Part shown: piece by piece, positions 5,529 to 58,175 of the stretch
Layout of the letters: each line of letters begins with the position of its first letter
Position numbering within the stretch: position 1 is the stretch's first letter
From: Tubulanus polymorphus
Lineage: Eukaryota; Animalia; Nemertea
DNA: 64,000 nucleotides
Direction of reading: 5' to 3'
Assembly: GCF_964204645.1 (NCBI RefSeq)
Contig: NC_134036.1
Location: forward strand, 7,912,812-7,976,811
Notes under the pieces: generated by a model
Databases searched by the model: none
Told to the model about the DNA's origin: nothing
The model's input: only the letters and a program-made list of their open reading frames with translations
Translations under genes and position numbers: made by a program

Positions 5529-6287
5529 AGTAATAGGGGTTTAGTTGTTCTATACCAAAGGTCGAAAGGTCGAGGTCGATAAATTTTCCAAATGTGAAAA
5601 TAACAAGAATTTCTACTTGAGTTAGTCGCGTACACTCCTAATTCAAGTAGAAATTATTATTATTTTAACATTTGGAAAATTTATCAACCTCGACCTTTCG
5701 ACCTTTGATATAGAACAACTAAACCCCTATTACTCTATCTAATCACAAGTCTCATAATTTACAAGCCTCAACACGTTGAGTATTGCGTATTACATGTTGA
5801 TTCTAGAACCATCCATCTAGAAAACTACATTAGCCAATCACAGTTGAGTATTACTCTAGCCAATCACAGTTGAGTATTTCCAGCCAATCACAGTTGAATA
5901 TTCCCTATTAATCTATCCAATCACAGTTGAGTATTTCCAGCCAATCACAGTTGAGTATTTTACTATTAATCTATCCAATCACAGTTGAGTATTCCCTATT
6001 ACACTAGCCAATCACAAGCCTCATAATTTACAAGTCTCAACACGCAGCTTGGTTTTCCCCACTGTTGAGTGGTATAAATAGGCGGGACTCACACGTGGTT
6101 GGACTCACACGTGGCGGGACGCGTTGAGAGGTAAGTGTTATGTTCAATTTTCAATAAAAAATTTGATATTAAAATGGAAGCAAATAAGTACTACTGTCCA
6201 ACATGTAATATCAATATAGATAAATCCCAAAAAGCAAGACACAATAAAACTAAAACACATTTAGATAATAAATTGAAACTAGAATAT
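5529..6287 (+). repeat. Left terminal inverted repeat of element 1 (~760 bp), extending into the pPolB coding start
   Basis: Reverse complement of 21851-22633; identity stops after ...CTAGAATAT. Confidence 0.95.
5830..6136 (+). promoter_or_regulatory. Pol II-like promoter in the TIR: tandem CCAAT-box repeats (CCAATCACAGTTGAGTATT), TATAAATA at 6073-6080, GGCGGG boxes, two CACGTG E-boxes (6092, 6108)
   Basis: Motifs read directly upstream of the pPolB ATG at 6174; largely mirrored in the right TIR. Function inferred. Confidence 0.55.
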
Positions 6288-9200
6288 AAAGATGATATAT
6301 TAGAAACTAAATTAGATGAATTAAAGAATGAAAAAGAAACATATAAATGTGATACATGTAATCAATCATTCAGTGATAAAAGATATTATAAAGAACATTT
6401 AAAATCTAAAAGTCATATTAGAAATATGAATAATGATATTTTAGGTGAAGATTATTTTGATAATGATAATGATAAGAAACAGAAGACAATTAAAAGAATA
6501 AGAAATAAATTAAACAATAAAAGACCATACATGGAAGATGTAAGAAAATATATTAATTTATTGGATAATAAAAAAGATATTGAGATAACCGAAGCATTTA
6601 AAAGTGATATTGGTCCAGCAGCTATCGAGTTTAAATTTCATAAAGGAAAAACATTAGAAGAAAATAAAAAACATTTAGAAAATATGAAAGAAATAATAAA
6701 AATAATAACTGATGTTGAATACCCTAAAATTAGTATATCTTCTAAAGTTAAATTCATAAAATCTGAAGATAATCCAATATATAATATAAATTCTCATTCA
6801 CAACATACTATATCTAAACAACATATAGATGATAAATAAGATAAATTTTATAATGAAGTAAAAACTAAAATAGAAGAGAAATATTTTGAAGGATCTGGTT
6901 TAATATTTGATGAAATAATATTTATGACTTTACATGTTTATAACACAAAATATAATAAGTTAACTAAATCAAAACCAATAGATGAAAATAATATATCATA
7001 TTATAAAGAACCAGATATTGAAGCATCGAGTTATATCAAACTACCATTTAAAACTAATGCTGTAATAAATGTACAAAATGAAGATGATAAATGTTTTCTA
7101 TGGGCTATAATAAGTTGTTTACATCCAACAGAAGATATTACACATAGTTTTAGATTAACTCATTATAAACCATTTGAAAATAATTATAAGATAGATAAGT
7201 ATCCTGTTAAAAACTAAAAACATCCCAAAAATAGAAAGGGATATTAATATAAAGATAAATGTATTTGATTTATTCAAATTACCAAATACAAAAGGTAACA
7301 ATATAAAACATTATACATTAGAACCTCTATACTTATCAAAAGATTATGATTCAAATGATGTGATAGATATATTATGTTATGAGAAACATTATATGTGGAT
7401 TAAAAGAATTGATTTATTTTTCAAATCAGAAAATGATTTTGATAATAAAATATATGTATGTAGAAAATGTATAACTAAATTCAGAACTGAAAGGGCATTA
7501 TTAAATCATAAACAATTATGTGAAAATCATGATTATTGTAAATTAGTTTTACCAAATGAAAAAGATAAAATATAAGAATTCAAAAAATATGATTACAAAA
7601 ATAAAGTACCATTTGTAATATATGGAGATTTTGAATCATTAAATAAAGAACTAACTGATCAAGATAGAAAAGAAATATATTATAAAAGAAGGAAATTAAA
7701 TTCTAATGAAAATGATTTTTCAGATGAACCACCAAAAACAAATACTATTAAAAAGATTCATCAATCAGCTGCTGCTTTCGGGTTATATATAAAATCTGAT
7801 TATCCAGAACTAATTGAAAGTAAATATTATGATTATAGAAATGAAAATGTTATCAATCATTTTTGTGACTTATTAATTGAATATGAAATAAGATTTAGTA
7901 AATTATTGAATACAAATATAGAAATTATAATGACAGAAGAAGATAAAGAAGAATTTGAGTTTGCAGATAAATGTTATTATTGTGAAAAGATATTTAATTA
8001 TAAAGATAAAAAAGTAAGAGACCATGATCATTTGAATGGAAAGTTTAGAGGCGCCGCACATGAGAATTGTAATTTACAAGCTAAGAAAATTAATTTTGTA
8101 CCAGTTATATTTCATAATCTATCAGGATATGATGCACATTTATTTATCAAACAGTTATGTCATAAAATAGAAGAAATTAATATTGAAATAGAAGATTAAA
8201 TTCAAATAGATCAAAAGATAAAATACCAACTTATAAATTTAGAATGTTAGCTAAAACATCTGAGAATTATATATCATTCCAATTTGGATGTCTAAGATTT
8301 ATAGATTCATATAGATTTTTAAATAGTTCATTAGATAACTTATCAAAATCATTAGTTGATGATGAATTAAAGATATTAAAAGAATATTACCCAAATATCG
8401 ATGATTTTCAATTAATGAGATATAAAGGAGCAATTCCATATTCATTTTATAAATCACATAATGATTTTAACATAACTGAATTATTGAAAGAACAATTCTA
8501 TGATGAATTAAAAAATGAATATGTTAAAGATGAAGTGTATAATAGAACATTGAATATTTGGAATCATTTCAAAATAGAAAATCATGGACAATTAGTAGAT
8601 ATATATTTAAAATCAGATGTATTATTATTAACCGATATATTCGAAAGGTTTAGAGATGTAAACCTAAAATATTTTAACATTGATCCTTGTCATTGTTATT
8701 CATCACCAGGTTTAACATGGGATTGTGGTTCAAAATTTACAGATATAAAAATGGATTTGTTAACAAATATAGATCAATTACTATTATTTGAAAAATCTAT
8801 AAGAGGAGGAGTTTCAGGTGTATTAGGTGATAGATATTTCAATGTAAATGATAACCCTGGATATAAGTTATTATATATAGATGCAAATAATTTGTATGGT
8901 TGGGCAATGATGGAACCACAACCTTATGGAGTATTTGAATTAACTGAAGTTTTACAGAATGAAAATAATGATAATTTTGATTGGAAGAAAAGAATCCTAG
9001 ATATTGCAGATGATTCAGATACTGGTTACTTCTTTGTTGTAGACTTAGAATATCCTGAACATATTAAATTTAAATCTAGAAATCTAGCATACTGTCCCGA
9101 ACATAAAACTAAATTACCAATAAAGAATTAAACCCGAAAATCATATTCATACAGAAAAGTTAATGGTAACTCAAGAAGATAAATATAATTATGTAGTACA

Positions 9201-10183
9201 TTATAGAATGTTAAAGTTTTATCTAAAACAAGGAATGGTTCTAAAAAAAGTACATAGATATATTTCATTTAGTCAATCTAAGTGGTTAGAAAAATATATA
9301 GATTTTAACACCAAACAGAGAACTGAAGCTAAAACTGATTTCGAAAAAGATTTCTTCAAGTTAATGAATAATGCATTCTATGGTAAGACTTGTGAAAATA
9401 TTAGAAATAGAAATGATATTGAGTTAGTTAGTAATGGTAAAAGGATAAGGCATTTACAATCATATCCTAAGTTCATTGGTAACAGAATATTTGATGAAAA
9501 TTTAGCTGCAGTTAAGATGAGAAGAACATCAATGAAATTTAATAAACCAATCTATGTTGGCGCTTCAGTTTTAGAATTATCAAAATTACTAATATATGAA
9601 TTCTATTATAATGTATTACAACCACTTTTTGGAGAAAAACATATAGAAATATTATATTTTGATACTGACAGTTACATATTAAAGATAAAAACTGATAACA
9701 TAACAGATGATTTAAAAACATTAAAACATTATTTTGATTTTCGTAATTATCCTAAAGATCATGAATTGTTTAGCAATGATAATAAAAAAGTTTAAGGATG
9801 AATTAGGTGGTGAAGAAATGATTGAATTCATAGGTATTCGATCTAAAATGTATTCATATAAAACTAAAGAACATGAAGCTAAAAAGTTAAAAGGAATAAC
9901 AAAAAGTGTAGTAGAAAAGAATATTCATTTTAAAGATTACATCAATTGTATATTCAATGAAGCAGTTAGAAAACATAAGATGAGATGTTTAAGATCTGAA
10001 GATCACGAAATATTTATTGAAGAAATTGAAAAGATAAGTCTAAACCCATTTGATGATAAAAGTTATATTCTGGATGATGGAATTCATACAGTTGCTTATG
10101 GTTGCAACTTAGATGAATACTTAAAATTTAAAAGAGAAGAAACAAAAGAGAACGAGATACTGAAAAGAATTCTAACGTGTTAA
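6174..10183 (+). pseudogene. Protein-primed DNA polymerase B (pPolB), interrupted by stops/frameshifts; intein-free allele
   Basis: N-terminal Zn fingers; vOTU-like DDKCFLWA...EKHYMW; endonuclease VII-like CYYC...RDHDH...CN; exonuclease region; motifs A YIDANNLYGWAM, B KLMNNAFYGK, C YFDTDS. Confidence 0.95.
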
Positions 10184-10212
10184 TCAAATTTTAATAAAAA
10201 TATGTTATTAAA

Positions 10213-10566
10213 ATGGAGAGTAAACAAGCGCACAGTGAGAAAAACAAATTATTTCTAGATAGAATAAAAGATACTACAAATATAAAATCTGTAGATTATA
10301 AATTCAAAAAGTTAACAGAATTAAAAATCCATAAGAAATATCTAATTACAAATATTGATACAGTTACTAATAACTATGGAGATAAATTAGTTATACACTT
10401 AGAATATGAAGGATTAAAAGGAAATACATATAAATTCAGAACATATTTACCTGATAGATTTCATAGATTATCAAGTGAAGATTTAGAAGAATTATGTTCT
10501 GGAGATTTCTATTTCGTATACAAAGGTAAGAATGAAAAATGGCATCATGAAATAGATTTCGAATAA
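10213..10566 (+). CDS. Small conserved Polinton protein, possible OB-fold/ssDNA-binding; homolog at 40765-41091
   Basis: Shared T.YG.K...L...F..[YF]LPD and VY.GK pattern with the element 2 ORF; fold is a guess. Confidence 0.55.
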   Translation: MESKQAHSEKNKLFLDRIKDTTNIKSVDYKFKKLTELKIHKKYLITNIDTVTNNYGDKLVIHLEYEGLKGNTYKFRTYLPDRFHRLSSEDLEELCSGDFYFVYKGKNEKWHHEIDFE

Positions 10567-10580
10567 AATATGTAAAATAA

Positions 10581-11337
10581 ATGGTAGAATTAAAAGAATA
10601 CAGAATATTTGTTGATTCTAGAAGGCTTACAAATTATAAATCTCATAATTTACTAGTTCAATTAGATAGGGAATATAAAAATTGTGTAGATTTAAAATTA
10701 GTCAATATAAGTTTATGTAATTCTTTTTATAATATAACGGATAAAACTATTGAAGATAATACTTTTTTAATTCATATTGGAAATCTAAATAAATGGTTTC
10801 ATATAATTTTAAAACCAGGATTATATAATTTAGAAACATTAGCTCAATAAATTAATAGAAGAGCACGGTTGAAAATTAGAAGAGAAGATAAATTTTTAAT
10901 TAGATTTATAAAAAGTGATAGCACAAATAAAATTAAAATAAAGGTATATGATGAAAGTCAACATGCATTTATGGTAAAAAACCTATAGCTAAACTGTTAG
11001 GAATTGCACCAGATACTGTTACAGGAAACGTAGATGGTATTTCAAATATAATACCTTTTACACACTTTTATATTTATTGCAATTTAATCGAGCCTACAAA
11101 AACATTCGAAGCAACTAAAGATACAATTTGTAATTCTAGTATATTAAATATTTTACCATTAAAAATGTTAAACAATTTGGAACGCAAATAAATTATAATT
11201 TAACAGAATGTGATTTTAAACCTTGCATTCCTAAATTTAATAATTTTAAATTAGAAATAAGGAATCACAATGGTTATTTAATTGATTTGAATAACTTTCC
11301 TGTGATATATGAATTAGTTATAAGATGTAGAGAGTAA
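10581..11337 (+). pseudogene. Minor capsid (penton) protein, single jelly-roll type, disrupted
   Basis: IFVDSR...NSFYNI...PGLYN...YIYCNLI...ILNILPL...LIDLNNFPVIYEL pattern typical of Polinton/NCLDV pentons; stop at 10848 plus frameshifts; near-identical to 51076-51832. Confidence 0.7.
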
Positions 11338-11354
11338 TTTTTTTCACTATATAA

Positions 11355-11711
11355 ATGAATATAACTGTTGGGCCGAGCATATGTTTTGGATTTGATTTTA
11401 AACGTGAGAAAGAAATGAAATTTAACGTTAATGATGTAATTACACATATCAAAAATATTGTATTTTCTAATGAAACAATATTTGAGTATGAAACAACAAT
11501 AGATAAAGAAACTTTAAATGTAGAAAAGATTACTAATTTAATTAGAGAATCTTAAAGATTTTATGAATTAGATGAAGATTTTATTATAGATGATATTAAA
11601 AAAATAATAATTGAAATATATACAAATGAAACTAGTAATGAAATAAATGTTGATTTAATCATAAATGAGATAACTAAATATTTTGATGATAGTAATTTTT
11701 TTGATAAATAA
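11355..11711 (+). pseudogene. Hypothetical ~118-aa acidic protein with one in-frame stop
   Basis: Intact ortholog at 50703-51059. Confidence 0.75.
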
Positions 11712-11933
11712 ATGAGTGATAATAAGTGGATAATAACTGGATTATATAATGGAGCATTACTATCAGTTGGAACTGTTGGTTATTCAATGGTATTAAAAAA
11801 AGTATTAAAAATGGGAAGTGTTAATGTTGATAGATTTGATATAAATGATATTCTAAAATTAACGTTAGCAGTTACTTTATCTAATTTAACTATTGATTAT
11901 TTAGAAAAACAAAAATATATTCCTCCCATATAA
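11712..11933 (+). CDS. 73-aa hydrophobic putative virion membrane/core protein
   Basis: Two hydrophobic segments; near-identical ortholog at 50481-50702. Confidence 0.75.
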   Translation: MSDNKWIITGLYNGALLSVGTVGYSMVLKKVLKMGSVNVDRFDINDILKLTLAVTLSNLTIDYLEKQKYIPPI

Positions 11934-11957
11934 ATGCGTAATTATTTTACTAAATAA

Positions 11958-12392
11958 ATGGCTTCTGCAGTTATAACTATTATAGGATCAGCAATTGTTA
12001 ACGCTTTAGCATTTACTGGTGGTGGTTATTTATTCAAGCATATTGATAAAAATGGATCATTAACAGAACAAAAAAGACATAACTTAGTATTAGAGAAATA
12101 TAATAAAGCAGCAGAAGAATATAGAGAAAAGAGACAAAACTATATGGATTACATCAATAAAGAATTATATGATCAGAAAATTTCACATAGAGATTTTCAA
12201 TCAGTTGATGATGCAATGAGTTTATATAACGCGGTAACAAATAAAGAAAAATTACATCTATACAAACCTAATTTATCAGATTATTATACCCCAAGTAAAG
12301 AACAAGAGAAATATGAAATAATATGGATTTTAGGTGGAACTGTTATTGTTATATTTGTTATAAGTTTACTAATTAGTAATTTTTTTTGCTAA
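11958..12392 (+). CDS. Putative membrane protein (N-terminal GSAIVNALAFTGGGYLF, C-terminal TM helix)
   Basis: Hydrophobic termini; ortholog at 50034-50456. Confidence 0.75.
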   Translation: MASAVITIIGSAIVNALAFTGGGYLFKHIDKNGSLTEQKRHNLVLEKYNKAAEEYREKRQNYMDYINKELYDQKISHRDFQSVDDAMSLYNAVTNKEKLHLYKPNLSDYYTPSKEQEKYEIIWILGGTVIVIFVISLLISNFFC

Positions 12393-12396
12393 ATAA

Positions 12397-12831
12397 ATGG
12401 AAGATAAAGTTGATAATATTGATATTATTCCTCATGATATAAATAAAACTAAATTAAAAATATATTTAGAAAAACAAATATTAGAATTTGAAAGTGATTT
12501 AAAAGTTAAAAAGAAAAAATATTTAAAAAGTAAAATTATATATTATCTTATTATCAGTGGTTCGGTTACAATTAGTTCTGTAATAACATTTCTAGCAATA
12601 TTCAGTCCATTAACACCTTTAGCTATATCAATTGGTGTATTAGGATTAAGTTCAAGTGTTTTAACTGGTATAAGTTCAAAATTAAATATAAAAAGTAATA
12701 AAGAAAAAATTAAAACTAATATAAAAGAAATTAATAAATTGAAGAATACACTAGATTATATAATAAGTTTAAATGGTCATATAACAGTTGAAGAACAAGA
12801 TAAATTATTAAAAGAATTAGTTAATTATTAA
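12397..12831 (+). CDS. Two-TM coiled-coil membrane protein
   Basis: Central hydrophobic hairpin; ortholog at 49589-50014. Confidence 0.75.
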   Translation: MEDKVDNIDIIPHDINKTKLKIYLEKQILEFESDLKVKKKKYLKSKIIYYLIISGSVTISSVITFLAIFSPLTPLAISIGVLGLSSSVLTGISSKLNIKSNKEKIKTNIKEINKLKNTLDYIISLNGHITVEEQDKLLKELVNY

Positions 12832-12847
12832 TTTTTTAGTTATATAA

Positions 12848-14173
12848 ATGGCAGATAGTTTTCCAAAAGCTTTCCAATATAATAAATCAATTAAATATAA
12901 TATTCCAGCAATATATTTTAATAAAGATATTACATATAGAAATGAAGTTTTAAATTCATTAATTGATTTATATATTTATGTTACTGAAAGTAATAATTTT
13001 CATGTGAAGATGGAAAATATATTTCATGTGTATACAATTAATTTCAAAAATTTAAATGAGGCAAAACAATGGTTATTAAAATCTAATATGAAGTATTGGC
13101 AGAACCAATTAAATTTTGCTGTTTATTGCGCAACAACAGGTTGTGGAATTAGTTGGAATGATCATTTAAACAAACCAAGTTTACCATTGATGTTATCACT
13201 TTTTAGATTTCATACATATTTTCAAATAAAATTAGTATTAGATGAATTAGAATGTCCTTTACCAGGTTCAAAATATTTTAAAGAATTGAATAATAATATT
13301 AATTTTTCTAAGTTTTATAAAATATGTAATGAATTTAATATTAATTCAAATAAAGATTTTAGAGCAAAAATTGGAACAATGGGCGGATTAGGAATATTAT
13401 ATACTAAAGAATTTGGTAAAATAATGACAAATTCAGATATAAGAACACTAAATTGGAATGAATTACCAAAATATTATAATAATATACAACAACAAAACAA
13501 TAATGGTTGGGTTAATTTCATTTTAGAAAATAGTGAAGGTTTTACTAAAGCTGGAATACAAAGAATAAATCAATCTATTAGAACTTATTTGATATGTATT
13601 TTAGGTGCGCAAGTTGAAACAAGATCCCCAATAATTGGAAATGATAACACTTCATTCGATGCGCAGAAACAATTCAAAGTATTATTTGAAGATTCAATTC
13701 ATAATGATAAAAATAGATTGATTCCAGAAAACATTGTAAGATATCAAAATTATTTAGATAAATCACATATTAGATTAAATTATTGTATAGGCCCTAATCT
13801 ATTAATTATTTCTAATGATTTAGTATTAAAGATGGGAAATATAATTGGTTATAATAATCTAATTAAAACTGCAACAATAAATAATTCATTTGGATTGAAT
13901 GATATAAATAAAAAGATTATTACTGCTCCAAAATTAATGGAAGGTGAAAAAAATAAAAAACACATTCAATCAACTGAAACTAAAACTAAAAATATTAAAT
14001 TAAATAATGATTCTAAAATAAAAGATTATAATACATCAGAAAATATTAAAACTGATAATATTCAACATGATATAATTAAAACTAATGATGATAATAAATC
14101 CTATGAAAATACTAAATTAGCTTTAACTTGTGTAGGAATTGTAATCGGAGGAATATTATATTTTAAATTTTAA
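12848..14173 (+). CDS. 441-aa conserved protein (WQNQLNFAVYCATTGCG motif) with C-terminal TM anchor; putative virion protein
   Basis: Intact ORF; ortholog at 48203-49572. Confidence 0.75.
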   Translation: MADSFPKAFQYNKSIKYNIPAIYFNKDITYRNEVLNSLIDLYIYVTESNNFHVKMENIFHVYTINFKNLNEAKQWLLKSNMKYWQNQLNFAVYCATTGCGISWNDHLNKPSLPLMLSLFRFHTYFQIKLVLDELECPLPGSKYFKELNNNINFSKFYKICNEFNINSNKDFRAKIGTMGGLGILYTKEFGKIMTNSDIRTLNWNELPKYYNNIQQQNNNGWVNFILENSEGFTKAGIQRINQSIRTYLICILGAQVETRSPIIGNDNTSFDAQKQFKVLFEDSIHNDKNRLIPENIVRYQNYLDKSHIRLNYCIGPNLLIISNDLVLKMGNIIGYNNLIKTATINNSFGLNDINKKIITAPKLMEGEKNKKHIQSTETKTKNIKLNNDSKIKDYNTSENIKTDNIQHDIIKTNDDNKSYENTKLALTCVGIVIGGILYFKF

Positions 14174-14188
14174 TTTTTTATTATATAA

Positions 14189-15610
14189 ATGGAAGAAGAT
14201 ATTCCAATTGATCCTTTAGATGAACCCGGTATAAGTGATGAACAACAACCTGATTTTAGTGAAACAAGTTTTAATGACGGTAATGAGCCAGGACGTAATT
14301 CTAATTTAAATACACCTGCATGTATTGATAAAACACGTTCAAAGATAAGTATTGAAAAAGAAGTACCAGAAATAACAGAAAAAGAATACAAATATAATGA
14401 AATTATTCATGAATTTAAACCAATGTTAAAAAGATCTGGTTTCAATATAACAAATAAAGGTATGAATTATTTAGTAAAAGATTTGAAATATTTTAATGGT
14501 GATTATTATTGGAAATTAAAAGGCGACTATTATTTTAAGATTTCAAATCTTAAAAGTAACGATAAAATAATAACACAATCAACTTTTAATTTATTTAAAC
14601 CAGATAGAATTAAGAAAATCATTAATGATATTATAACTGATGTTACAGAAAAAGAGATAATTGATAATAGAAGAGAATTTAAACAAAGAAATGCTAAATT
14701 TTTTAAGATAATTAATGAAAAAAAAAAAATTCCTAAAGAAGCTGATAATTCCAAAACTAGTAAACTTAAATCAAACACTGAAGTTCAAACTGAAAAGCTT
14801 TTACCAAATGGATTACTCGATGCAACAGATCAAGAATTAGAAGATTTGAATATATTTTCTGATGAAGCAATTAGAGAAATTATTAGTATAAGAAATGAAG
14901 CTGATAAAATTGCACATAATAAAAGTATAAGAGATATTAAAATTAACAATTTAGAAAAAGAATTAACTGATAAAAATAAAGAAATAGAAAAATTAAAGTC
15001 TGATTTAGATCGTCGAGTAATTGATGAAATGGAATATAAGCAAAAATAATTAGGTTTAGAAAAAGAAATTAATAATTTAAAAGATAATTTAGAAGTACTG
15101 AAAGGTGAAAGAGATATATTATTAAAAGAATTTGGTAATAATTTTAAAAGATTAAAAGATGTTTTTAAAGATTTGTTGATAAAACCAAATTCTAAAATAT
15201 CATTAAAAGATAGAATAAGATTATTATTTAAGTTAGAAGGAATAACAATTCTTTCAATTCTAACAGCTGTAACTATGTTATTTACAACAATTGGTTTAGC
15301 TATATCAAATGCTTTAAAATCTACACCTACTCCTACTCCCAATAAACCGAATAAACCCCCGAATGATAAGAATTCTATACAAGATAAAGTTAAGGATGGT
15401 TTAAAGAAATTAGCAAAATATTTATGGGAACTATCTAAAAAATCTGCTGCAGCTTTACCAGGAATTATTGCATCAATTGTTGGTTTTATATTGAAATCTG
15501 CAGGAAACATTATTAACTTTGCTGCTGAACATATTATTTTATTTTTAATTACAGCTGTAAGTGCTATTATTTTTGGGTTAGTGAATATGATATCAAAAAA
15601 TATCAAGTAA
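14189..15610 (+). pseudogene. Coiled-coil protein with C-terminal hydrophobic helices (~473 codons, one in-frame stop at 15047)
   Basis: ORFs 14189 and 15173 are in the same frame; ortholog at 46441-48186 and in both relics. Confidence 0.75.
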
Positions 15611-15650
15611 ACATGATCAAAAATAAATAATTAATTTTTTTGTTAAATAA

Positions 15651-16898: not shown

Positions 16899-16930
16899 AA
16901 TTTTAACTTTAATAAAAATATATATAATAA

Positions 16931-17695
16931 ATGGAAGGAGGTAAAGTATATAAACATATTCCATACATCGATACACATGAAAATAATGATGGTTTATATT
17001 ATGTAATACCTTGTAATATAGCTTTGATATTTGATCCTATTTTCAAAATTTATAAAACTAAACTAATAGAAATCTATAATAATAAAAGTGAAGTTGTTGA
17101 TTATTTAAGTAATGTAATTTATAATAATGTTTTACCTTCGACATCTGATAATGTTTTACCTTCTACATAGAATAATGAAATAATATTAAATGTTAGTGAA
17201 AATAGAAATTATTGTGATTATTATAAAGGTGAATTTTCAAACGCCCCATCAAATTGGAATAAACATATGAATACAAATTCACATATTACAAATGTTATAG
17301 AACGTGTTGGTTTAAAAGAATTTATAGAACACCCATTTAGATATGTTACAAAATTTGTTTCGAATAAAAAAGTAAATGGTAAAGAATTATATGAAGATTT
17401 ATTATTAGCAACACCTAATAAAGATGAATTAGATTTAACTGATGCTAATAAAATATTAGGATCAAACACTGTAAATGAAATATTAGGAGCAAACACGAAT
17501 AAAGATTCTATGAAACATAAAGTAGAAAATAATGATAAATTTGATTGGATGAATAAGCATAACAATGAAACAACTATTGATGATTCGGTAAAAAAGGTGA
17601 AAAAAAAGTATAAAAATAATAGAGAATTTGAAGAAGAAAATTCGGTAGAGAATTTGAGAAAATTGTTAGGGTCTGATATAATATTCATATATTAG
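16931..17695 (+). pseudogene. Hypothetical protein with degenerate zinc-finger-like motif, one in-frame stop
   Basis: ORFs 16931 and 17267 share a frame; YCDYY...WNKHMNTNSH between them; absent from element 2. Confidence 0.5.
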
Positions 17696-36440: not shown

Positions 36441-36444
36441 CTAT

Positions 36445-46416: not shown

Positions 46417-46440
46417 TTATTAAACAAAAAAATTAATTAT

Positions 46441-48186
46441 TTATTTTTTATTATTTTTTTCTTGATATCTTTTTGATATCATATTTACTAACCCAAAAAT
46501 AATAGCACTTACAACTGTAATTAAAAATAAAATAATATGTTCAGCAGCAAAGTTAAGAATATTCCCAGCAGATTTCAATATAAAACCAACAATTGATGCA
46601 ATAACTCCTGGTAAAGCTGCAGCAGATTTTTTAGATAGTTCCCATAAATATTTTGCTAATTTCTTTAAACCATCCTTAACTTTATCTTGTATAGAATTAT
46701 TATCATTCGGGGGTTTATCTGGTTTATTGGGAGTAGGAGTAGATTTCAAAGCATTTGATATTGCTAAACCAATTGTTGTAAATTACATAGTTACAGCTGT
46801 TAGAATTGAAAGAATTGTTATTCCTTCTAATTTAAATAATAACTTTATTCTATCTTTCAATGATATTTTAGAATCTGGTTTTATCAACAAATCTTTAAAA
46901 ATAACTTTTAATTTTTTAATATGATTAAGATCATATGATTTTAATAATGTATCTCTTTCTTTTTCCTGTAATTCTTTGTTATATTTTAAATCATCTCTTT
47001 CTTTTTCTAAAGCTAACTTTCTGCTTTCATAATCAGCTTCCTCGATTAATTGAATATCTCTATTTAATTCTAATTGTTTTAATTCTTCATTTGCATTAGT
47101 TAATTCTTTTTCTAACATGGTTATTTTAGAAAATCTCATCTTAATATTAGCAATTTCACCAGCTGATTCTTGCATACCTTTAATTTCTCTACGTGCTTGT
47201 TCAGGAAATGCTTCTAATTCATCATCAGTTAACTGAGGCATCGACAACGAAGAAGAAGGACTTGTTCAGTAATTGTTCCCGATTTTCTTTTGAAACGATG
47301 CTCAATGTCTTCATTCGATAAACAGGTATGTCCATCAACTTTGAAGAAAGTTACGCTTGAATCAAGTATTCCTTTTTCTAGTAAAGATAGTATTCGATTT
47401 ATTCCAGTTTCAGTACCGGGTGTATCTAAAATACTATTCATCTCTTCGTCAAATGAATGAATTGTATCAAACATTTTATCAAAATGTTTTACTACTTGTA
47501 ATTGATTTGAATCATTATCAATTTGTTGAATATCTCTTCTAGATGTTTCGGGTGTTGAAGATCTTAATTTATCTAATCGATCTCTATTCTCTTCCATTTC
47601 CGTTTCTGGATTATCATCGATTATTTTAAATAAGTCATCAATTCTTTGTTTGAATTCTTTTCTATTTTGTTTTTATTTCTTTTTGTGTTACATCAGTTAT
47701 TTCATTACTATTAATTATTCTCTTAATTCTATCTGGTTCTAACTTAAGCAAAGTTGATTCTGCTAATATTATATTTTGATTTTTATAAGAGATGTTAATA
47801 TAATAATCATCTTTCAATTTATAATAATATTCACCATCTAAAAACTTTAAATCTTGTACTAAAAGTCTGGCGCCTCTATCATTTATATTATATCCAGATC
47901 TTACAAATACATCTTGAAACTTATATATAAATTTATTATTTTCTATATCTTCCTTTGATAAACCTGGCATTTCATTTTCAGGATTTATTTTCGATCTAGT
48001 TCTTCTATCAAATTCATCTGTTGATGGGACTTTAGAACCACTATCTGCTAAATTAGAATCATATGCTGATTCATCATCATTATCAATATTAGTTTCATTA
48101 AAATCAGGTTGTGGTTCATCATCAATGTATCCTTCATTATTATTTCCCATGTCATCCAATGGAAAACCTTCTCCACCTTCTGCCAT
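46441..48186 (-). pseudogene. Coiled-coil protein with C-terminal hydrophobic helices, disrupted
   Basis: C-terminus near-identical to 15173-15610; N-terminal and central parts diverged and longer. Confidence 0.75.
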
Positions 48187-48202
48187 TTACATAATAAAAA
48201 AA

Positions 48203-49572
48203 TTAAAATTTAAAATATAATATTCCTCCGATTACAATTCCTATACAAGTTATAGCTAATTTAGTATTTTCATGGGATTTATTATCATCATTTAGTTTAA
48301 TTATATCATGTTGAATAATATCAGTTTCTATATCTTCTGATGTATTATAATCCGGTTTAGAATCATTATTTAATTTAATATTTTTAGTTTTAGTTTCAGT
48401 TGATTGAATATGTTTTTTATTTTTTTCACCTTCCATTAATTTTGGAGCAGTAATAATCTTTTTATTTATATCATTTAATCCAAATGAATTATTTATTGTT
48501 GCAGTTTTAATTAGATTATTATAACCAATTATATTTCCCATCTTTAATACTAAATCATTAGAAATAATTATTAGATTAGGGCCTATACAATAATTTAATC
48601 TAATATGTGATTTATCTAAATAATCTTGATATCTTATAATGTTTTCTGGAATCGATCTATTTTTATCATTATGAATTGAATCTTCAAATAAAACTTCAAA
48701 TTGTTTCTGTGTATCGAATGATGTATTCAAATTTCCAATTATTGGTGATCTTGTTTCAACTTGCGCACCTAAAATACATATCAAATAAGTTCTAATAGAT
48801 TGATTTATTCTTTGTATACCTGATTTAGTAAAACCTTCATTATTTTCTAAAATGAAATAAACCCAACCATTATTGTTTTCTTGTTTTAAATTATCATAAA
48901 ATGTCAGTAATTTATTAAAATTTAATGTTTCTAAATCCTAAGTTTCTATTTTACCATAACCTAATTTATGACTATAGATATTATACAAACTATTAGATGG
49001 TATGGGAAGTGCACAATATTCTGCAATCTTTTTAGGGCAAGGAAGTGATCTTATTGTTCCAATTTTTGTTCTAAAATCAGAATTATTTATATCTATATTA
49101 AATTCATTACAAATTTTATAAAACTTTGATAAATTAATATTATTATCTAATTCTTTAAAATATCTTGATCCTGGTAAAGCGCACTCTAATTCATTTAATA
49201 TTATTCTTATTTAAAAGTATGTATGAAATCTAAATAAACTTTGAATTAATTTATATTTAGAATTATTCAAATGATCATTCCAACTAATTCCACATCCTGT
49301 TGTTGCACAATAAACAGCAATATTTAATTGGTTCTGCCAATACTTCATATTAGATTTTAATAACCATTGTTTTTCATCTTTCAATTTTTTACATGAAATA
49401 TATTTTCCATCTTTACATGAAAATTATTACTTTCAGTAACATAAATATATAAATCAATTAATGAATTTAAAACTTCATTTCTATATGTAATATCTTTATT
49501 AAAATCTATTGCTGGAATATTATATTTAATTGATTTATTATATTGGAAAGCTTTTGGAAAACTATCTGCCAT
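48203..49572 (-). pseudogene. Ortholog of the 441-aa TM-anchored protein, disrupted
   Basis: Both ends near-identical to 12848-14173. Confidence 0.75.
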
Positions 49573-49588
49573 TTATATAATTAAAAAA

Positions 49589-50014
49589 TTAATAATTTAT
49601 TAATTCTTTTAATAATTTATCTTGTTCTTCAACTGTTATATGACCATTTAAACTTATTATATAAACTAGTGTATTCTTTAATTTATCAATTTCTTTTATA
49701 TTAGTTTTAATTTTTTCTTTATTACTTTTTATATTTAATTTTGAACTTTTAACGGTTAAAACACTTGAACTTAATCCTAATACACCAATTGATATAGCTA
49801 AAGGTGTTAATGGACTGAATATTGCTAGAAATGTTATTACAGGACTAATTGTAACCGAACCACTAATAATCAAATAATATATAATTTTACTTTTTAAATA
49901 TTTTTTCTTTTTAACTTTTAAATCACTTTCAAATTCTAATATTTGTTTTTCTAAATATATTCTTAATTTAGTTTTATTTATATCATGAGGAATAATATCA
50001 ATATTATCTTCCAT
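49589..50014 (-). CDS. Two-TM membrane protein
   Basis: Ortholog of 12397-12831. Confidence 0.75.
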   Translation of the reverse strand: MEDNIDIIPHDINKTKLRIYLEKQILEFESDLKVKKKKYLKSKIIYYLIISGSVTISPVITFLAIFSPLTPLAISIGVLGLSSSVLTVKSSKLNIKSNKEKIKTNIKEIDKLKNTLVYIISLNGHITVEEQDKLLKELINY

Positions 50015-50033
50015 TCATTTAGAAAAAAAATTA

Positions 50034-50456
50034 CTAATTAGTAAACTTATAAGCAACAAATATAACAATAACAGTTCCACCTAAAATCCAAATTATTTCA
50101 TATTTCTGTTGTTCTTTACTTGGGGTATAATAATCTGATAATTTAGGTTTGTATAGATGTAATTTTTCTTTATTTGTTACTGCGTTATATAAACTCATTG
50201 CATCATCAACTGATTGAAAATCTCTATGTGAAATCTTCTGATCATATAATTCTTTATTCATGTAATCCATATAGTTTTGTCGTTTTTCTCTATATTCTTC
50301 TGCTGCTTTATTGTATTTCTCTAATGCTAAAATATGTCTTCTTTGTTCTCCTAATGAACTATTTTTATCAATATGTTTAAATAAATATCCACCACCAGTA
50401 AATGCTAAAGCGTTAACAATTGCCGATCCTATAATAGTTATAATTGCAGAAGCCAT
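50034..50456 (-). CDS. Putative membrane protein
   Basis: Ortholog of 11958-12392. Confidence 0.75.
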   Translation of the reverse strand: MASAIITIIGSAIVNALAFTGGGYLFKHIDKNSSLGEQRRHILALEKYNKAAEEYREKRQNYMDYMNKELYDQKISHRDFQSVDDAMSLYNAVTNKEKLHLYKPKLSDYYTPSKEQQKYEIIWILGGTVIVIFVAYKFTN

Positions 50457-50480
50457 TTATTTAGCAAAAAAATTATGCAT

Positions 50481-50702
50481 TTATATGGGAGGAATATATT
50501 TTTGTTTTTCCAAATAATTAATAGTTAAATTAGATAAAGTAACTGCTAATGTTAATTTTAAGATATCATTGATATCAAATCTATCAACATTAACACTTCC
50601 CATTTTGAATACTTTTTTTAATACCATTGAATAACCAACAGTTCCAACTGATAGTAATGCGCCATTATATAATCCAGTTATTATCAAATTATTATCACTC
50701 AT
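50481..50702 (-). CDS. 73-aa hydrophobic protein
   Basis: Ortholog of 11712-11933. Confidence 0.75.
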   Translation of the reverse strand: MSDNNLIITGLYNGALLSVGTVGYSMVLKKVFKMGSVNVDRFDINDILKLTLAVTLSNLTINYLEKQKYIPPI

Positions 50703-51059
50703 TTATTTATCAAAAACATTACTATCATCAAAAAATTTAGTTAACTTATTTATGATTGATTCAACATTTATTTCATTACTAGTTTCATTTGTATATATTT
50801 CAATTATTCTTTTTTTAATATCATCGATGATAAAATCTTCATCTAATTCATAAAATCTTAGAGATTCTCTAATTAAATTAGTAATCTTTTCTACATTTAA
50901 AGTTTCTTTATCTATTGTTGTTTCATACTCAAATGTTGTTTCATTAGAAAATGCAATATTTTTAATATGTGTAATTACATCAGTAATGTTAAATTTCATT
51001 TCTTTCTCACGTTTAAAATCAAATCCAAAACATATGCTCGGCCCAACAGTTATATTCAT
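50703..51059 (-). CDS. 118-aa hypothetical acidic protein
   Basis: Ortholog of 11355-11711. Confidence 0.75.
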   Translation of the reverse strand: MNITVGPSICFGFDFKREKEMKFNITDVITHIKNIAFSNETTFEYETTIDKETLNVEKITNLIRESLRFYELDEDFIIDDIKKRIIEIYTNETSNEINVESIINKLTKFFDDSNVFDK

Positions 51060-51075
51060 TTATATAATGAAGAAA

Positions 51076-51832
51076 TTACTCTCTACATCTTATAACTAAT
51101 TCATATATTACAGGAAAGTTATTCAAATCAATTAAATAACCATTATGATTTCTTATTTCTAATTTAAAATTATTGAAATGTGGAATACAAGGTTTGAAAT
51201 CACATTCTGTTAAATTATAATTTATTTGCGCTCCAAATTGTTTAACATTCTTCAATGGTAAAATATTTAATATACTAGAATTACATGTTGTATCTTTAGT
51301 TGCTTCAAATGTTTTTGTAGGATCAATTAAATTGCAATAAATATAAGTGTGTAAAAGGTATTATATTTGAAATGCCTTCTACGTTTACTGTAACAACATC
51401 TGGTGCAATTCCTAGCAATTTAGCTAATGGTTTTTTTACTATAAATGCATTTTGACTTTCATCAAATACCTTTATTTTAATTTTATTTGAGCTATCACTT
51501 TTTATAAATCTTATTAAAAATTTATCATCTTTTCTAATTTTCAACCGTGCTCTACGATTAATTTCTTGAGCTAATGTTTCTAAATTATATAATCCTGGTC
51601 TTAGAAATAGATGAAACCATTTATTTATATTTCTAATATGAATTAAAAAAGTATTATGTTCAATAGTTTTATTCGATATATTATAAAAAGAATTACATAA
51701 ACTTATATTAACTAATTTTAAATCTACACAATTCTTAAATTCTCTATCTAATTGTACTAGTAAATTTTGAGATTTATAATTTGTAAGTTTTCTTGAATCA
51801 ACAAATATTCTGTATTCTTTCAATTCTACCAT
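51076..51832 (-). pseudogene. Minor capsid (penton) protein, frameshifted
   Basis: Ortholog of 10581-11337. Confidence 0.7.
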
Positions 51833-51900
51833 TATTTATAACATAAAAAAATTACCGCTCATCACTAAAAATTAATTTTAATAAAATTTTTCCTAAATAA

Positions 51901-52842
51901 ATGGATGAGAAGATAGCATGCGAAATTTGTGGTGAACTTCTAAGAAAAAGTAATATGGCTCGACATATGAAAAAACATGATGAAAATTATAAACCCCCTA
52001 AAATAAACTGCCCAAAATGTAATAAATTATTCTCAAGAAATTATGTTAAAAAACATTCAGAGAAGTGTAGAATTAATGGTGCAACGGCTAATGTTGATAG
52101 TAATGAAAGTAATAGTAATTCTGCCGAAGTTGAACCTGAAGTTATTTGGAAAAGACCTTTCTTATTCTATGATAAGGATAATATAAAAGATCATTTCTGT
52201 GAGCCTTGTCGAATAAAATATAGCCCTGAAAATATAGAAGATTGGGAGAATCATCAATTTCGTAAAGCACATATAGATAAAATTTCTAATAAATTTGAAA
52301 CTGAATTCAATGAAAGAAAAAATAATTTATTAGAAAAAATAAAATATGAGAAAACGTAACCAGATAATAAAGAAACAGTTGAAAAGTTAGAAAAACAATA
52401 TAATGAATTAACAAGAAAAAAATATTATTGTAAATATTGTAAATTGATTATTACAACAAGTAATTCAAATCTACATAATAGAACAATAAAACATAAAGAA
52501 AACGTAAGAAAATACCAGGAGCTTAATGAAGATATATTACCAATAAATTATAAACGAAAATGTCCACAATGTAGTTATGCGACCTTAAGACAAGAAGGTA
52601 CTGTGTTATTTTGTAATGAATGTGGATGGCAAAAGAATTTATTGGGTGAAGAAAAAACTAGAGATTTTCTCATAGATCCAAAATTAAATTATCTAGATGA
52701 AATTTTTAAAATATTTTCTATGGAAGATCATACACCAGAATATATGCAATGGCTTGAAAAAATGAAAATAATAGAAAATAAAAATGGTGAAATAACTAAA
52801 AAAGATATTATAAATACAATTATTCCGTCAACATTTAATTAA
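51901..52842 (+). pseudogene. Multi-zinc-finger protein (probably one frameshifted gene)
   Basis: CEIC...HMKKH, CPKC...H, CEPC...H...H, CKYC...H, CPQC...CNEC motifs; TAAATG start. Confidence 0.65.
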
Positions 52843-53019
52843 CACAAAACAAAAGAAAATGTATTTATATTTATTATTTAACGATTATTATGAAAAACCT
52901 AAATTATCAGAAGATACGGAAAATATAAAAAAAATATTCAAACAAATATTAATGTATCATTTAGAAAATAGAATAACAGATTCAATAAATTATGAATTCT
53001 TTTTAAATAAGATTGTAAA

Positions 53020-56000
53020 TTATTTAAACATAGATATTATAATTCCATAAGGTAATGTTTTTATACCATCATCTAAAATATGCCTTTTATCATCAAATGG
53101 ATTTAAACTAGTTTTTTTCAACTTCATTAATGTACATCTCATGATCTTCTGATCTTAAACAATTCATTTTGTGTTTCATTACAATTGATTTATATAAACA
53201 CTATATAATCTTGAAATTCTATATGTTTATCAACCACATGTTTTGTTATTCCTTTTAACTTTTTAGCTTCATGATCTTTTGTTCTGTAACTATACATTTT
53301 ACTTCTTATCCCAACAAATTGAATCATTTCATCACCCCCTAATTCATCTTTAAATTTACCAGGAATCTTTTTATTATCATTGCTAAATAGTTCATGATCT
53401 TTGGGATAATTGCTAAAATCAAAATGATGTTTTAATGTTTTTAAGTCTTTTGTTATGTCATTTGTCTTGATTTTTAGTATGTAGGCGTCAGTATTTTTGG
53501 CTATTAATGGAAATCCACAGTTAAATGTACCATCTTCAGTTGATAAATCATAAACATAATCTGTTGGGTTATATATTTCAAATAAATCTTTAACTTCTTC
53601 AGTTAACTCATTTTCTACATGGCTTAAATTAAAGCAATTTGGTTTAGATTTAATCAATCCAATATTCATATTAAAACCTAATGAATTGCATAATATATTT
53701 AATCCTGATATAGCAACTTTTCCTTTTTGAGCTAAAGATATTGTTTTGCGGTTTTTGAAACTTTTAGTACCATCGGCTGCGTAGAATCCAATGAAGAACC
53801 ATTTTCTTAAATTATTTTTTGCATTTAATACATAATCTGGAACTATCTTTTCTTTAGTTGAAGTATTACTTTTCACTATTGCATGAATATAGAATTCGTT
53901 ATTATATTTTATAGCAAAATCTTTAGGATTATTCACATGTATTCTATAACGTTGCGATGATTTCATAACATCTATGATTTTGAATGTTTTATGTGAATAA
54001 ACTTCTTCACAGAATTTCTTAATTCTTTCTAATAATTTTAAGTCTTGATTGCATAAATACCAGCAATATTGAGTGCGATTAACATAATTATACACACCTG
54101 CTGAACCATCACCCATGAAAAATCCTTTGATAAAATATTCTTTTTCTTCTAATGTTTCGGGTTCTATATTATAAATATTATCAATTATTTCATCAAATGA
54201 CATATGATTCATTCTTTGGAAAAATCTTTTATGTAATAATTCATCTCCAATTTTTATATCAGTTGGTTTTATTTCATCGCCATTTCGTTTAATTAAACTA
54301 TGATCTTCTGTAACATCTACGAACCCTAATTTAGTTCTAACTCTATAGATTTTATTATTTGTTTTATGTCTAATAATATTCTTTAATTTTTTCCATCCAT
54401 TTCTTGTCCAAACATCCATTAATCCATTTATTTGTATTAATTATTTTTCTCCATATGAAATATAACATTCATTTTGTTTTGGAATTATTTCTGAAATTCT
54501 TCTTATCAATATTTTATCATTACATTTTAATAATATTGGGGTGTCAGCTGTTACAGAATCAAAATATAATATTCCAATATGCTTTTCCCCAAAAAGTGGT
54601 TGTAAAACATTATAATAAAAATCATACATTAATAATTTTGATACTTCTAAAACAGTCGAACCAATAAATATAGGTTTATTAAATTTCATTGATGTTCTTT
54701 TTAATTTAACAGCTGTTAAATAATCTTCAAATCTTTTATTTCCTAAATGTCTAGGACTTGATTGTAAATGTCTTAATCTTTCAGAATTATTTACTAATTC
54801 AATATCATTTCTATTTCTAATATTTTCACGTTTTACCATAAAAACTATTATTCATTAATTTGAAGAAATCTTTTTCAAAATCTGTTTTTGATATTGTTCT
54901 CTGTTGAGTATTGAAATCTATATATTTTTCTAACCACTTCGATTGATTAAATTCAATATATCTATGTACTTTCTTTAATTTCATTCCTTGTTTTGGATAA
55001 AATTTTAACATTCTATAATGAACAATATAATTGTATTTATTATTTTGAGTAAGTATTAATTTTTCTGGAAAAACATGATCTTTCGGTTTTATTTTCTTCT
55101 GGTATTCACTTAAATAACTATCATCTACAGTTAAATGTTCTGGGCAATAAGGTAAGTTTCTTGTTTTAAACTTTATATTTTCAGGATATTCTAAATCAAC
55201 TACAAAGAAATAACCAATTGGTGCTTCATCTTTTGAACTCGCAATTGCGCTTTCTCAATCAGTTTTATCATCATTTTCAACTTCTGTTAATATAAAATTT
55301 TCATATGGTTGAGGTTGCATCATTGCCCAACCATATAAATTATTGGCGTCAATATATAATAATTTATATTCATCATTTGCTTTAAAATACCTATCTCCCA
55401 TAACACCACTAATTCCACCTCTAATTGATTTTTCAAATAATAAAACCATATCTGGTTTTTTTAATAAATCTAATTCTACATTTGTATATTTTAAACCACA
55501 TTGCCAGGTTAAACCAGGACTAGAGTAGCAATAACAAGGATCAACATTAAAATGATTCAAATTAACTTCTCTAAATTTTTCAAATATGTCAGCCAATATC
55601 ATAACGTCTGATTTTAAATATAAATCAACTAATTCACCATGGTTTTTCATCTTAAAATGGTTCCAAATATTTAATGTTCTATTAAACACTTCGTCTTTCA
55701 CATACTCCTCTTTTAATTGATTATAAAATTGATCTTTTAATAATTCTGTTACATTAAAATCATTGTGTGTTTTATAAAATGAATAAGGAATTGCACCTTT
55801 ATATCTCAATAATTTAAAATCTTGTTCATTTGGATAATAATATCGAGTTATAACAAAATCATTATCAACTAAACTTTTTGATAAATTATCTAATGAACTT
55901 GCTAGAAATCTATAAGAATCTAAAAATCTAATGCAACCAAATTGAAATGAAATATAATTTTCAGATGTTTTAGCTAATAGTTTAAAATCATATTTTCTTA

Positions 56001-58095
56001 CATTTACACCATTCATAGCATTATATTCTTCTATTTCTTGATTAATTGCGCCCAATTTTCCCGATAATTGTTTTATAAATAGATGGGTATCATAGCCTGA
56101 TAAATTATGAAATAATATTGGTACGAAATTAACTTTCTTAGCTTGTAAATTGCAATCTTCATGAGCAGCTCCACGATATTCTGAATTTAAATGATCATGA
56201 TCTCTAACTCTTTTATCAAATGAATTAAAACGTTTTTCACAATAACAACAATGAGTTGCATAATTAAAATCAATTTCATCTTTTGTCATAACTATTCTTT
56301 TATTTTTGTTTAATAATTTTGCAAAATCACTTTTTAATTCAATCATTTTATCACAAAAATCATTAACTACATTTTCACCTCTAAAAGAAATATATTGACT
56401 TTCATATAATTCAGGATAATTTGATTTTATATAAATTCCATAAGCAGCAGCTCTTTGATGAACTTTTTTAATTGTATTTATAATTGGTGGGTCTTGTATT
56501 GTGTCTTCATTTAATTCATTTCCTTTGTCCATTGATTTTAATAATTGCTTTTTGTTATATATTTCTTTTCTATCTTGATCAGTTAATTCTTTATTCAACG
56601 ATTCAAAATCCCCATAAATTACAAATGGAACAATATTCTTAAATTTATGATTAGTAAGTTTCAATTTATAATCTTTTTCTGTTGGCATTATTAATTTACA
56701 AAAATCTTTATTATCACATAATTCTTTATATTTTAGTAATGTATTCTCAGTCATAAATTTAGATAAACATTTTCTACATAGATAAATTTTATTATGGTGA
56801 TCACTTTCTGTTCTAAAGAATAAATCAATTTGTTTTAACCACATATAATGTTCATTTTCATCTTTTTTGTAATATAACAAATCTATAGCATTTTCATCAT
56901 CATAATATTCTGTTAAATATAAAGCTTCCAATGTATAATCTTTAATATTTTCACCTTTTGTCTTTGGTAATTGCATTAATTCGAATACATTTATTTTTAA
57001 ATTATTAACTTTTTCTATTTTAGAAATCATTTTTATAGTTACTGGATATTGATCAATTTTATATAATGTTTCATATTTCCGATAATCTGTTATTCTACAA
57101 ACATTTTCCTGTGTTGGACGTAAGCAACTAATAATTGACCATAGAAAACATTTATTATCTTCATTTTGAATATTTATTACTGCTTTTGTTGTAAATGGTA
57201 ATTAAATATAAGATGATGCTTTAATATCCTTTTCTGTTGTAAAGTTTGAATCATTTTTAAACATTTTATTACTTTTTGATGTTTTATTTCTTTTTGTATT
57301 ATAAACATTTAAATCTAAATATATAATTTCATTCAATGTTAAGCCAGAACCCTCAAAATATCTTTCTTCAATATGACGTTTAAATTCATTAAATATTTTT
57401 TCTAACTTCTCTTTTATATGTGTTTTTGAAATTATTTCTTCAGAGAGTGTTTGAATATTATAATCCATTTTATCTTCTGACTTTATAAAACTTACTTTCC
57501 CAGAGATACTAATTTTTGGATATTCAACATCTGTTATCAAATCTAGTATTTTTTCTATTATTTCATTAAATGTACTATAATCTTCTATTGTTGTACCTTT
57601 AAAAAATCTAAATATAATAGCTGCAGGACCAATTTTACTATGTAATGTTTCTAAAATTTCAATTGTATCTTTTATTTCTAGTGAATCAATATAATTTCTA
57701 ACATTTTCCATGTATGGTTTATTTGAAACGGATTTAGTTTTTGAAGTTGATTTTTTTACTTGTTGAGGTTTATTATCAAAATATTCTGATCCTAAAACAT
57801 TTTTATTTAAATTTTTATAATGTTTTTGTGATTCGAGATGTCTATTATAATTCCCTTTTACTATAAATTCATTACAAACTTCACATTTTATTTCATCCAC
57901 ATTCATATTTTCTAATCGTTCTTTTCTTTCATTGGAATTTTCTGGAGTTTCAAAATCTATTACATTTTTTATATGATTTGCAGATTTTTCATGTCGTGAT
58001 TTTTGGGATTTATCGATGTATTTTTTACAATATTGACAATAATATTGATTTTTATTGACATTTTTATTGACATCTGGCTGTGGTTCATTCTCCAT
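53020..58095 (-). pseudogene. Protein-primed DNA polymerase B containing an intein, disrupted
   Basis: YIDANNLYGWAM, KLMNNSFYGK, YFD|intein|TDAY, KKLKGI, NPFDDKR; N-terminal Zn fingers. Confidence 0.95.
53493..54557 (-). mobile_element. Intein with LAGLIDADG homing endonuclease (355 codons, one in-frame TAA at 54441-54443) in pPolB motif C
   Basis: Block A SVTADTPILL, block B VDVTEDHSL (TxxH), blocks C/E KGFFMGDG and IGFYAADG, block F YVYDLST, block G ...IAKN|T; absent at the same site in element 1. Confidence 0.93.
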
Positions 58096-58175
58096 TTATA
58101 AGGAAAAAACATTACTTGTGGTGATGAGTGGTCGACCTTCGACCTCTGATCTGAAAGCCTACTTTCCCAATTACT
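58092..58175 (-). repeat. 84-bp TIR of element 2 (polymerase end)
   Basis: Reverse complement of 40685-40768; includes the pPolB TAAATG start. Confidence 0.95.

Follow-up and report, generated by a model that had tools for sequence, protein, structure and literature searches.

We examined 64,000 nucleotides of the nemertean Tubulanus polymorphus (contig NC_134036.1), the stretch referred to below as the window. An initial annotation had read its interval 5529..58175 as one candidate system, a virophage-like Polinton tied to a cytoplasmic giant or pox-like virus. The Polinton-like nature was borne out. A single element was not: the interval holds two separate full-length insertions, E1 and E2, each with its own target site duplication (TSD), and its limits are the outer ends of the two. 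We conclude that E1 and E2 are real endogenous, broken Polinton-like viruses whose genes bear a convincing pox-type promoter signature.

Two Polinton-like elements and their genes

Both elements start with AGT and end with ACT, and their GC content is about 23%, against mostly 29-49% in the flanks (Table 1). The terminal inverted repeat (TIR) of E2 is 84 bp long and on both sides reaches up to the TAAATG with which the terminal gene starts. Near the end of both TIR types lie short tandem AGGTCG repeats (5559-5578, 40715-40727), perhaps binding sites of the integrase or a terminal protein. Identity between the elements is 78% in the ATPase, 74% in a piece of the protein-primed DNA polymerase (pPolB) and 56% in the integrase core; by this measure, E1 and E2 are different subfamilies.

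Reads were taken from one DNA run, of which 12% was read. Of these, 273 run from the E1 end into flanks that differ (agreement 0.39), and the empty site is seen in 148. Hence, the family has multiple copies at many insertion sites. In both elements pPolB is in pieces and the capsid frame is interrupted by a stop, and the E1 integrase has two stops. Neither copy could work alone.

Table 1. Features of E1, E2 and related fragments (window coordinates)
Feature	Position	Strand	Remarks
E1, full-length Polinton-like element	5529..22633	+	17,105 bp; 6-bp TSD AACAAC; empty-site reads
E1 left TIR	5529..6287	+	759 bp; 95% to right TIR; takes in pPolB start
E1 left terminal palindrome	5529..5733	.	205 nt
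Pol II-like signals in E1 TIR	5834..6135	+	tandem array of 7 CCAAT; TATAAA at 6073; two GGCGGG; two CACGTG; donor-like GGTAAG at 6130
E1 pPolB	6174..10183	+	no intein; broken into pieces; starts TAAAATG
E1 candidate minor capsid (penton) gene	10581..11340	+	broken
E1 block p118, p73, p144a, p144b, p441, p485	11355..15610	+	T-run and TAAATG starts; four with hydrophobic segments
E1 major capsid protein gene	15651..16898	+	double jelly-roll by model of intact relative; one internal stop
E1 A32-like packaging ATPase	17840..18451	-	
E1 RVE integrase with chromodomain	18444..19562	-	two internal stops
E1 HNH/EndoVII-type nuclease	20938..21645	-	intact open reading frame
E1 right TIR	21851..22633	-	includes terminal palindrome 22429-22633
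Decayed fragment F1	26492..28841	-	same family; capsid region
Decayed fragment F2	36434..40045	-	same family; rearranged
E2, full-length element	40685..58175	-	17,491 bp; 6-bp TSD CACATT
E2 A32-like ATPase	43402..44010	-	
E2 RVE integrase	44011..45138	-	open frame; DDE-like residues
E2 major capsid protein gene	45169..46416	-	one internal stop
E2 block p485, p441, p144b, p144a, p73, p118 and candidate penton	46450..51832	-	several broken
E2 gene with zinc fingers, zinc ribbon and VLTF3-like domain	51901..53050	+	broken
E2 pPolB	53044..58095	-	broken into pieces; starts TAAATG
LAGLIDADG intein in E2 PolB	53493..54557	-	at YFD|TDA; interrupted by frame break

Pfam searches over 41 open reading frames (ORFs) returned pPolB, RVE integrase, Pox_A32 ATPase, intein and zinc fingers, with PF03175 above cut-off in both elements; none of the 41 matched an RNA polymerase gene or a protease family. 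Unassigned gaps contain no further frame longer than 99 aa. Several features that define Maverick-Polintons are present: pPolB, RVE integrase, TIRs, a 6-bp TSD, a double jelly-roll (DJR) capsid and an A32 ATPase. vOTU-like motifs are kept in the pPolB of 4 of 5 relatives.

The capsid protein has no Pfam match and no IMG/VR relative, and IMG/VR scans with the ATPase, the capsid alignment and the intein gave no loci. Databases do contain 132 relatives of the capsid protein, mostly about 415 aa long. From an 81-row alignment headed by an intact relative, a model with pLDDT 92.6 was obtained. It matched DJR capsids (131 BFVD matches at E<=0.001, best TM about 0.65), and the capsids of mavirus and Sputnik ranked 47 and 49. 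The model indicates that the major capsid protein is a DJR protein, remotely like that of mavirus or Sputnik. The gene at 10581..11340, a candidate penton gene by a motif, belongs to a conserved family with no PDB, Pfam or PHROG match above cut-off.

Membrane-protein genes without a standalone maturation protease had been listed as a sign of helper dependence. Hydrophobic segments were indeed found in 5 of 7 non-control proteins tested (p73 and the E1 piece f3 lack them), and the scanned ORFs yielded no protease. However, what was scanned of TAAATG-negative relatives (partial loci) likewise showed no standalone protease. The protein p441 (12848-14173) is conserved in 28 related ORFs and has a C-terminal hydrophobic helix; its model (pLDDT 76, with a confident core) found nothing in BFVD at E<=0.001, a best PDB Z of 4.8 and no usable Atlas match. 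None of p441, f3 and p485 gave a significant match, though a very divergent protease may have been missed.

Start sites and promoter layout

Nearly all genes had been said to start with TAAATG, and the counts uphold this. The motif stands at 24 of 28 gene starts compared with 75 of 1326 other ATGs (5.7%; binomial p ~2e-26). In a fuller list it is found at 26/30 starts, or 26/31 when the E1 integrase start, which lacks it, is added; counting one copy per gene family, the figure is 16/18. Among hand-picked starts from the window and eight close loci, 61 of 66 are TAAATG.

Vaccinia late promoters combine TAAATG with a conserved T ten bases upstream amid other Ts, and intermediate promoters combine TAAA with an A/T-rich upstream part (PMC11980589). 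Entomopoxvirus and fish poxvirus genes are reported to use the same TAAATG (PMC3061580, PMC4542343). The element starts match the late consensus, TAAATG with an upstream T-run. At least five Ts lie at -16 to -10 in 14 of 15 starts of the structural and unknown block but in only 6 of 73 internal TAAATG sites (p=3e-9), a contrast that is an upper bound, with gene classes assigned by ourselves and the internal controls mostly in A-rich coding DNA. In the window and its relatives, 33/35 block starts have T at the tenth base upstream of TAAAT. The A-rich form of intermediate genes precedes the ATPase, p408 and the E1 HNH start; when starts that are mostly A-rich upstream are taken, these are the ATPase, p408, the penton and the two TAAAATG genes. 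At the level of sequence, we find the pox-type signature convincing.

Is the motif kept in relatives? A metagenome scan gave 227 confirmed stretches, of which the best 80 were kept. Capsid starts were usable in 60 loci: TAAATG was present in 9/9 with at least 52% identity to the query and in 7/51 of the rest. We built a quick capsid tree of 52 rows (two window pieces and 50 loci whose capsid frames are full; the thorough search was unfinished), in which TAAATG falls in two supported clades (SH-aLRT 99 and 100) and one long-branch row. At core genes it marks 27/29 and 16/17 starts in the two clades and 2/3 in L068. Elsewhere the counts are 0/146 (a 28-locus clade), 0/21 and 0/10. In the 28-locus clade, a TCTA motif like that of Cafeteria roenbergensis virus was weakly enriched (30/146 against a background of 7.6%, orthologues not being independent), and we do not claim it.

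Perhaps TAAATG is merely a by-product of AT richness, of stop-start coupling or of overlapping poly(A) signals? The low GC content of the elements would fit, yet two AT-rich relatives lack the motif (L018, 26% GC, 0/5; L066, 29% GC, 0/3), and two at 39-44% GC keep it (L045, 6/6; L005, 2/3). The TAA does double as an upstream stop at 3 of 28 starts (the upstream frames are open for 51, 118 and 375 codons), and AATAAA overlaps with 13 of 24. However, TAAATG gene pairs arranged head to head, 14-72 bp apart, occur in 10 of 82 loci, and for those genes stop-start coupling and upstream poly(A) signals are therefore excluded. Depletion of AATAAA did not discriminate (46 observed in the window, 45.4 expected; TAAATG-negative relatives are not depleted either). 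Background, divergent pairs and clade data largely refute the by-product explanation, which we regard as highly improbable. From the background, the head-to-head pairs and the clade distribution, we infer that TAAATG is a selected cis signal.

One near relative, L037 (49% GC), has no TAAATG; instead TTTTCT followed by TATA stands close to most of its starts. In its three-locus group this layout is found at 8/10 core starts (background 11%). It resembles the late promoter of African swine fever virus (ASFV; PMC5294985), and by analogy L037 is possibly keyed to an ASFV-like helper.

A further pox-like feature had been overlooked. The E2 gene at 51901-53050 encodes zinc fingers and a zinc ribbon, and it matches Pox_VLTF3 (poxvirus late transcription factor 3) weakly, with an E of 0.001 that misses the cut-off; alignments with two intact relatives span it. 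Pox_VLTF3 recurs in 26 of 30 Atlas matches of the intact relative P0354 (score 0.93, uncalibrated for protein parts). E1 has no VLTF3-like gene.

We wondered whether the elements might instead be autonomous nuclear Polinton-like viruses, in which host RNA polymerase II (Pol II), TBP and the element's own VLTF3-like factor use TAAAT as initiator without a helper. The E1 TIR looks, from its CCAAT, TATA, GC-box and E-box motifs, like a nuclear Pol II promoter, and this suggests either a two-compartment cycle or full autonomy. The high copy number and the many different flanks, which need germline nuclear access, point the same way. We know of no RNA polymerase in the small Mriyaviruses. These reportedly encode both VLTF2 and VLTF3 (bioRxiv 2026.06.19.733378). 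Several features are hard to reconcile with such autonomy, however. The 84-bp TIR of E2 has no CCAAT array, and E1 lacks the VLTF3-like factor. Starts on opposite strands can lie only 14 bp apart. With a TATA box directly against the ATG, transcripts would begin within the coding frame, although N-termini are in fact conserved. The T that TAAATG places at -3 is a poor translation context. Taken together, nuclear autonomy is possible but doubtful.

Intein, nuclease and terminal hairpins

A giant-virus-type PolB intein, an NCLDV-type (nucleocytoplasmic large DNA virus) HNH nuclease and hairpin termini had been thought to converge with TAAATG on a helper. TAAATG is in both elements. The intein, the HNH gene and the long hairpin, in contrast, are each in one only, and the signals do not all converge.

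The intein is found only in the E2 PolB (Pfam Intein_splicing and LAGLIDADG_3), where it interrupts the motif that also harbors the intein of mimivirus PolB. Its closest relatives are other pPolB inteins (63% and 49%), then family B polymerases including that of mimivirus (39%). We built a quick tree of 69 rows, from 76 of 120 matches listed, retaining rows that aligned over 250-420 columns, with two partial pPolB rows dropped. The nine pPolB inteins group in a single clade (99) among inteins of PF00136, of which the mimivirus row is the only virus-named one. The intein is thus present with giant-virus-type kin, but in a Polinton-specific clade. This pattern fits one old giant-virus transfer followed by spread among Polintons, rather than a present poxvirus helper.

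The HNH gene, confined to E1, has 66 relatives. In both IMG/VR relatives (L081:3290-5756, L082:747-1541) it lies between pieces of capsid genes that we take, from a motif, to be of NCLDV type. The NCLDV link is supported to this extent, but phage families match as well (phrog_1035, 2.7e-19).

Might the helper, then, be something other than a poxvirus, such as a different giant virus, or a cytoplasmic element of the linear-plasmid type that has an RNA polymerase of its own? The mimivirus-like relatives of intein and HNH and the ASFV-like layout of near relative L037 would suit it. ATNTGA is the upstream motif of the yeast elements, and here it is at background (2/29 and 0/17). Yeast virus-like elements are reported to use a TAAAN initiator with slippage (PMC6211774). 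The T at -10, on the other hand, fits vaccinia specifically, and we consider a non-pox helper unlikely.

Hairpin termini were confirmed for E1 and not for E2. E1 carries a 205-nt palindrome at each end (fold z=-22.5), whereas the 84-bp TIR of E2 folds weakly (z=-2.7). In the reads, further copies have a similar loop but shorter stems that differ in sequence; hence terminal hairpins are a subfamily trait. Hairpin-transfer replication was considered and is unsupported: none of the 15 joints listed in the same read sample had the form expected of flip/flop inversion of the terminal loop. A further group of about 420 reads shares only the hairpin core (5633-5673) and then runs into other sequence, as from another high-copy family with the same core.

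A proposed pox-like helper and known systems

Integration with a 6-bp duplication, the gene set, the lack of an RNA polymerase among the scanned ORFs and the promoter layout with its conservation in clades are direct observations. What would transcribe such genes? We lean toward the view that E1 and E2 are integrated, broken copies of Polinton-like viruses likely transcribed by the RNA polymerase of a co-infecting cytoplasmic pox-like helper. With a match to the vaccinia late consensus and no RNA polymerase match among the scanned ORFs, E1 and E2 resemble the virophage-like class in this respect. Virophage-like, helper-dependent expression has gained support beyond that in the initial annotation from the late-promoter layout, the head-to-head pairs, fixation in clades and the VLTF3-like gene, but loses the supposed convergence of intein, HNH and hairpin.

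A number of points weigh against helper transcription. The analysis turned up no sequence of a helper, no transcript and no particle. TAAAN initiators serve yeast cytoplasmic linear plasmids too (PMC6211774). The T-run contrast is an upper bound and many starts overlap AATAAA. The late/intermediate split is imperfect: E2 pPolB and VLTF3 have a T-run, and penton and ATPase are mostly A-rich. E1 pPolB starts TAAAATG, downstream of the Pol II-like signals; the TIR has 7 CCAAT where about one is expected, although these form a tandem array. The relatives of intein and HNH suggest mimivirus-like and phage pools rather than poxviruses. In Pfam, VLTF3 scores stay under the cut-off and P0354 itself is not matched, and a weak match is also present in TAAATG-negative L037. 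VLTF3 is moreover described from polintoviruses generally (PMC11131425; likewise PMC8502044).

Under helper transcription, the cycle might run as follows. The RVE integrase would insert the linear genome. Intact copies would later leave the host DNA, a release that the Pol II-like promoter of E1-type termini may assist. Replication by pPolB would begin at the AGT ends. Transcription by the helper polymerase would begin within TAAAT, where slippage would add a poly(A) leader, and the VLTF3-like protein of some copies would tune late transcription. Capsid, ATPase and membrane proteins would then build particles in the helper factory.

Poxvirus-associated Polinton-like viruses (PLVs) and promoter-keyed reactivation in protists are already known. 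AHEV_PLV1, AHEV_PLV2, CBEV_PLV1 and Ca_PLV1 are associated with entomopoxviruses, in whose occlusion bodies PLVs are reported, and are small DJR viruses of animals; they are proposed to be poxvirus hyperparasites (Barth et al. 2024, PMC11296320). One is integrated, two have pPolB, and an A32 ATPase is shared with E1 and E2. All four, however, have an adenovirus-type protease, and as integrases either tyrosine recombinases or none are named. In E1 and E2 the integrase is of RVE type and a protease of that kind was not found. In its main text, that paper contains no occurrence of 'promoter', 'TAAAT', 'intein' or 'HNH' and no promoter analysis, and a motif look-up, a weak test, found none of four short family motifs in its supplement.

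With Maverick-Polintons and adintoviruses (groups 1 and 2), E1 and E2 share a pPolB with vOTU-like Cys/His motifs (PMC11161782 for the motif), RVE, A32, a DJR capsid, TIRs, the 6-bp TSD and a size of 17 kb. They differ in the pox-type starts, the membrane block with the unplaced p441, and a capsid without Pfam match or IMG/VR relative. The standalone adenain/Ulp1 cysteine protease of group 1 and adintoviruses was not found among the scanned ORFs.

Mavirus/EMALE provirophages and Tetraselmis PLVs likewise integrate with RVE and pPolB, lack an RNA polymerase and carry a helper-type late promoter, which serves as a key to compatibility. Their hosts are protists and the helpers mimivirus-like, with reactivation and defence demonstrated, whereas E1 and E2 are known from sequence. 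To our knowledge, yeast cytoplasmic linear plasmids have no capsid or integrase. The yeast plasmids pGKL1/2 share pPolB, TIRs, AT richness and the TAAAN initiator with E1 and E2 but encode their own RNA polymerase (PMC6211774). In protists, reactivation is reported to be confined to provirophages that bear the late promoter of their helper (bioRxiv 2025.10.09.676808).

In the literature covered, to which most subscription papers and preprint supplements do not belong, we found no report of a TAAATG or late promoter in a Polinton and none of a Polinton pPolB intein; sections 5 and 6 of a 2026 framework preprint report neither. A clade-wide poxvirus late-promoter layout offers a direct, cheap test of mavirus-like helper dependence, and from it pox-like viruses would be expected even in hosts from which perhaps none has been described. 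A broader idea is that this widespread protease-less Polinton lineage represents animal-genome provirophages of pox-like giant viruses, keyed by promoter (TAAATG in two clades, TATA-type in L037), with promoters that would preserve in the genome a trace of undiscovered pox-like viruses and high-copy families that could be an inducible heritable defence; we hold it to be rather improbable, and antiviral defence, being speculation, forms no part of our explanation.

Other relatives and neighboring DNA

A close relative carries a deoxynucleoside kinase gene (L002:10340-10981; Pfam dNK, E 2e-31), whose TAAATG start is preceded by a T-run. At L042:1757-4369, a TAAATG-clade locus adjoins a typical PF03175-type pPolB (E 4e-52), which suggests exchange of the replication module. 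The relatives P0011 and P0177 are filed as Bartonella sp. and Ca. Thiodiazotropha, probably because host sequence was carried into the assemblies of symbionts.

The DNA of the window is eukaryotic; it contains a 154-bp satellite, and a block of host sequence recurs at about 29-kb spacing. An Rfam search gave no matches, and neither did Pfam on four ORFs of the flanks. Decayed same-family fragments and host repeats lie between E1 and E2, including what is presumably a broken DIRS-type retrotransposon at 24364-25932, with RNase H, methyltransferase and tyrosine recombinase motifs and no Pfam match. Inside E2, the GC-richer stretch 41130-41760, to which no gene is assigned, is probably a secondary insertion. 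An E2-type end is present at 1-458. The five family pieces within 64 kb suggest an insertion hot spot or a silencing cluster. Arrays of the satellite adjoin the insertions at 28830-31477, 40046-40491 and 58595-61141.

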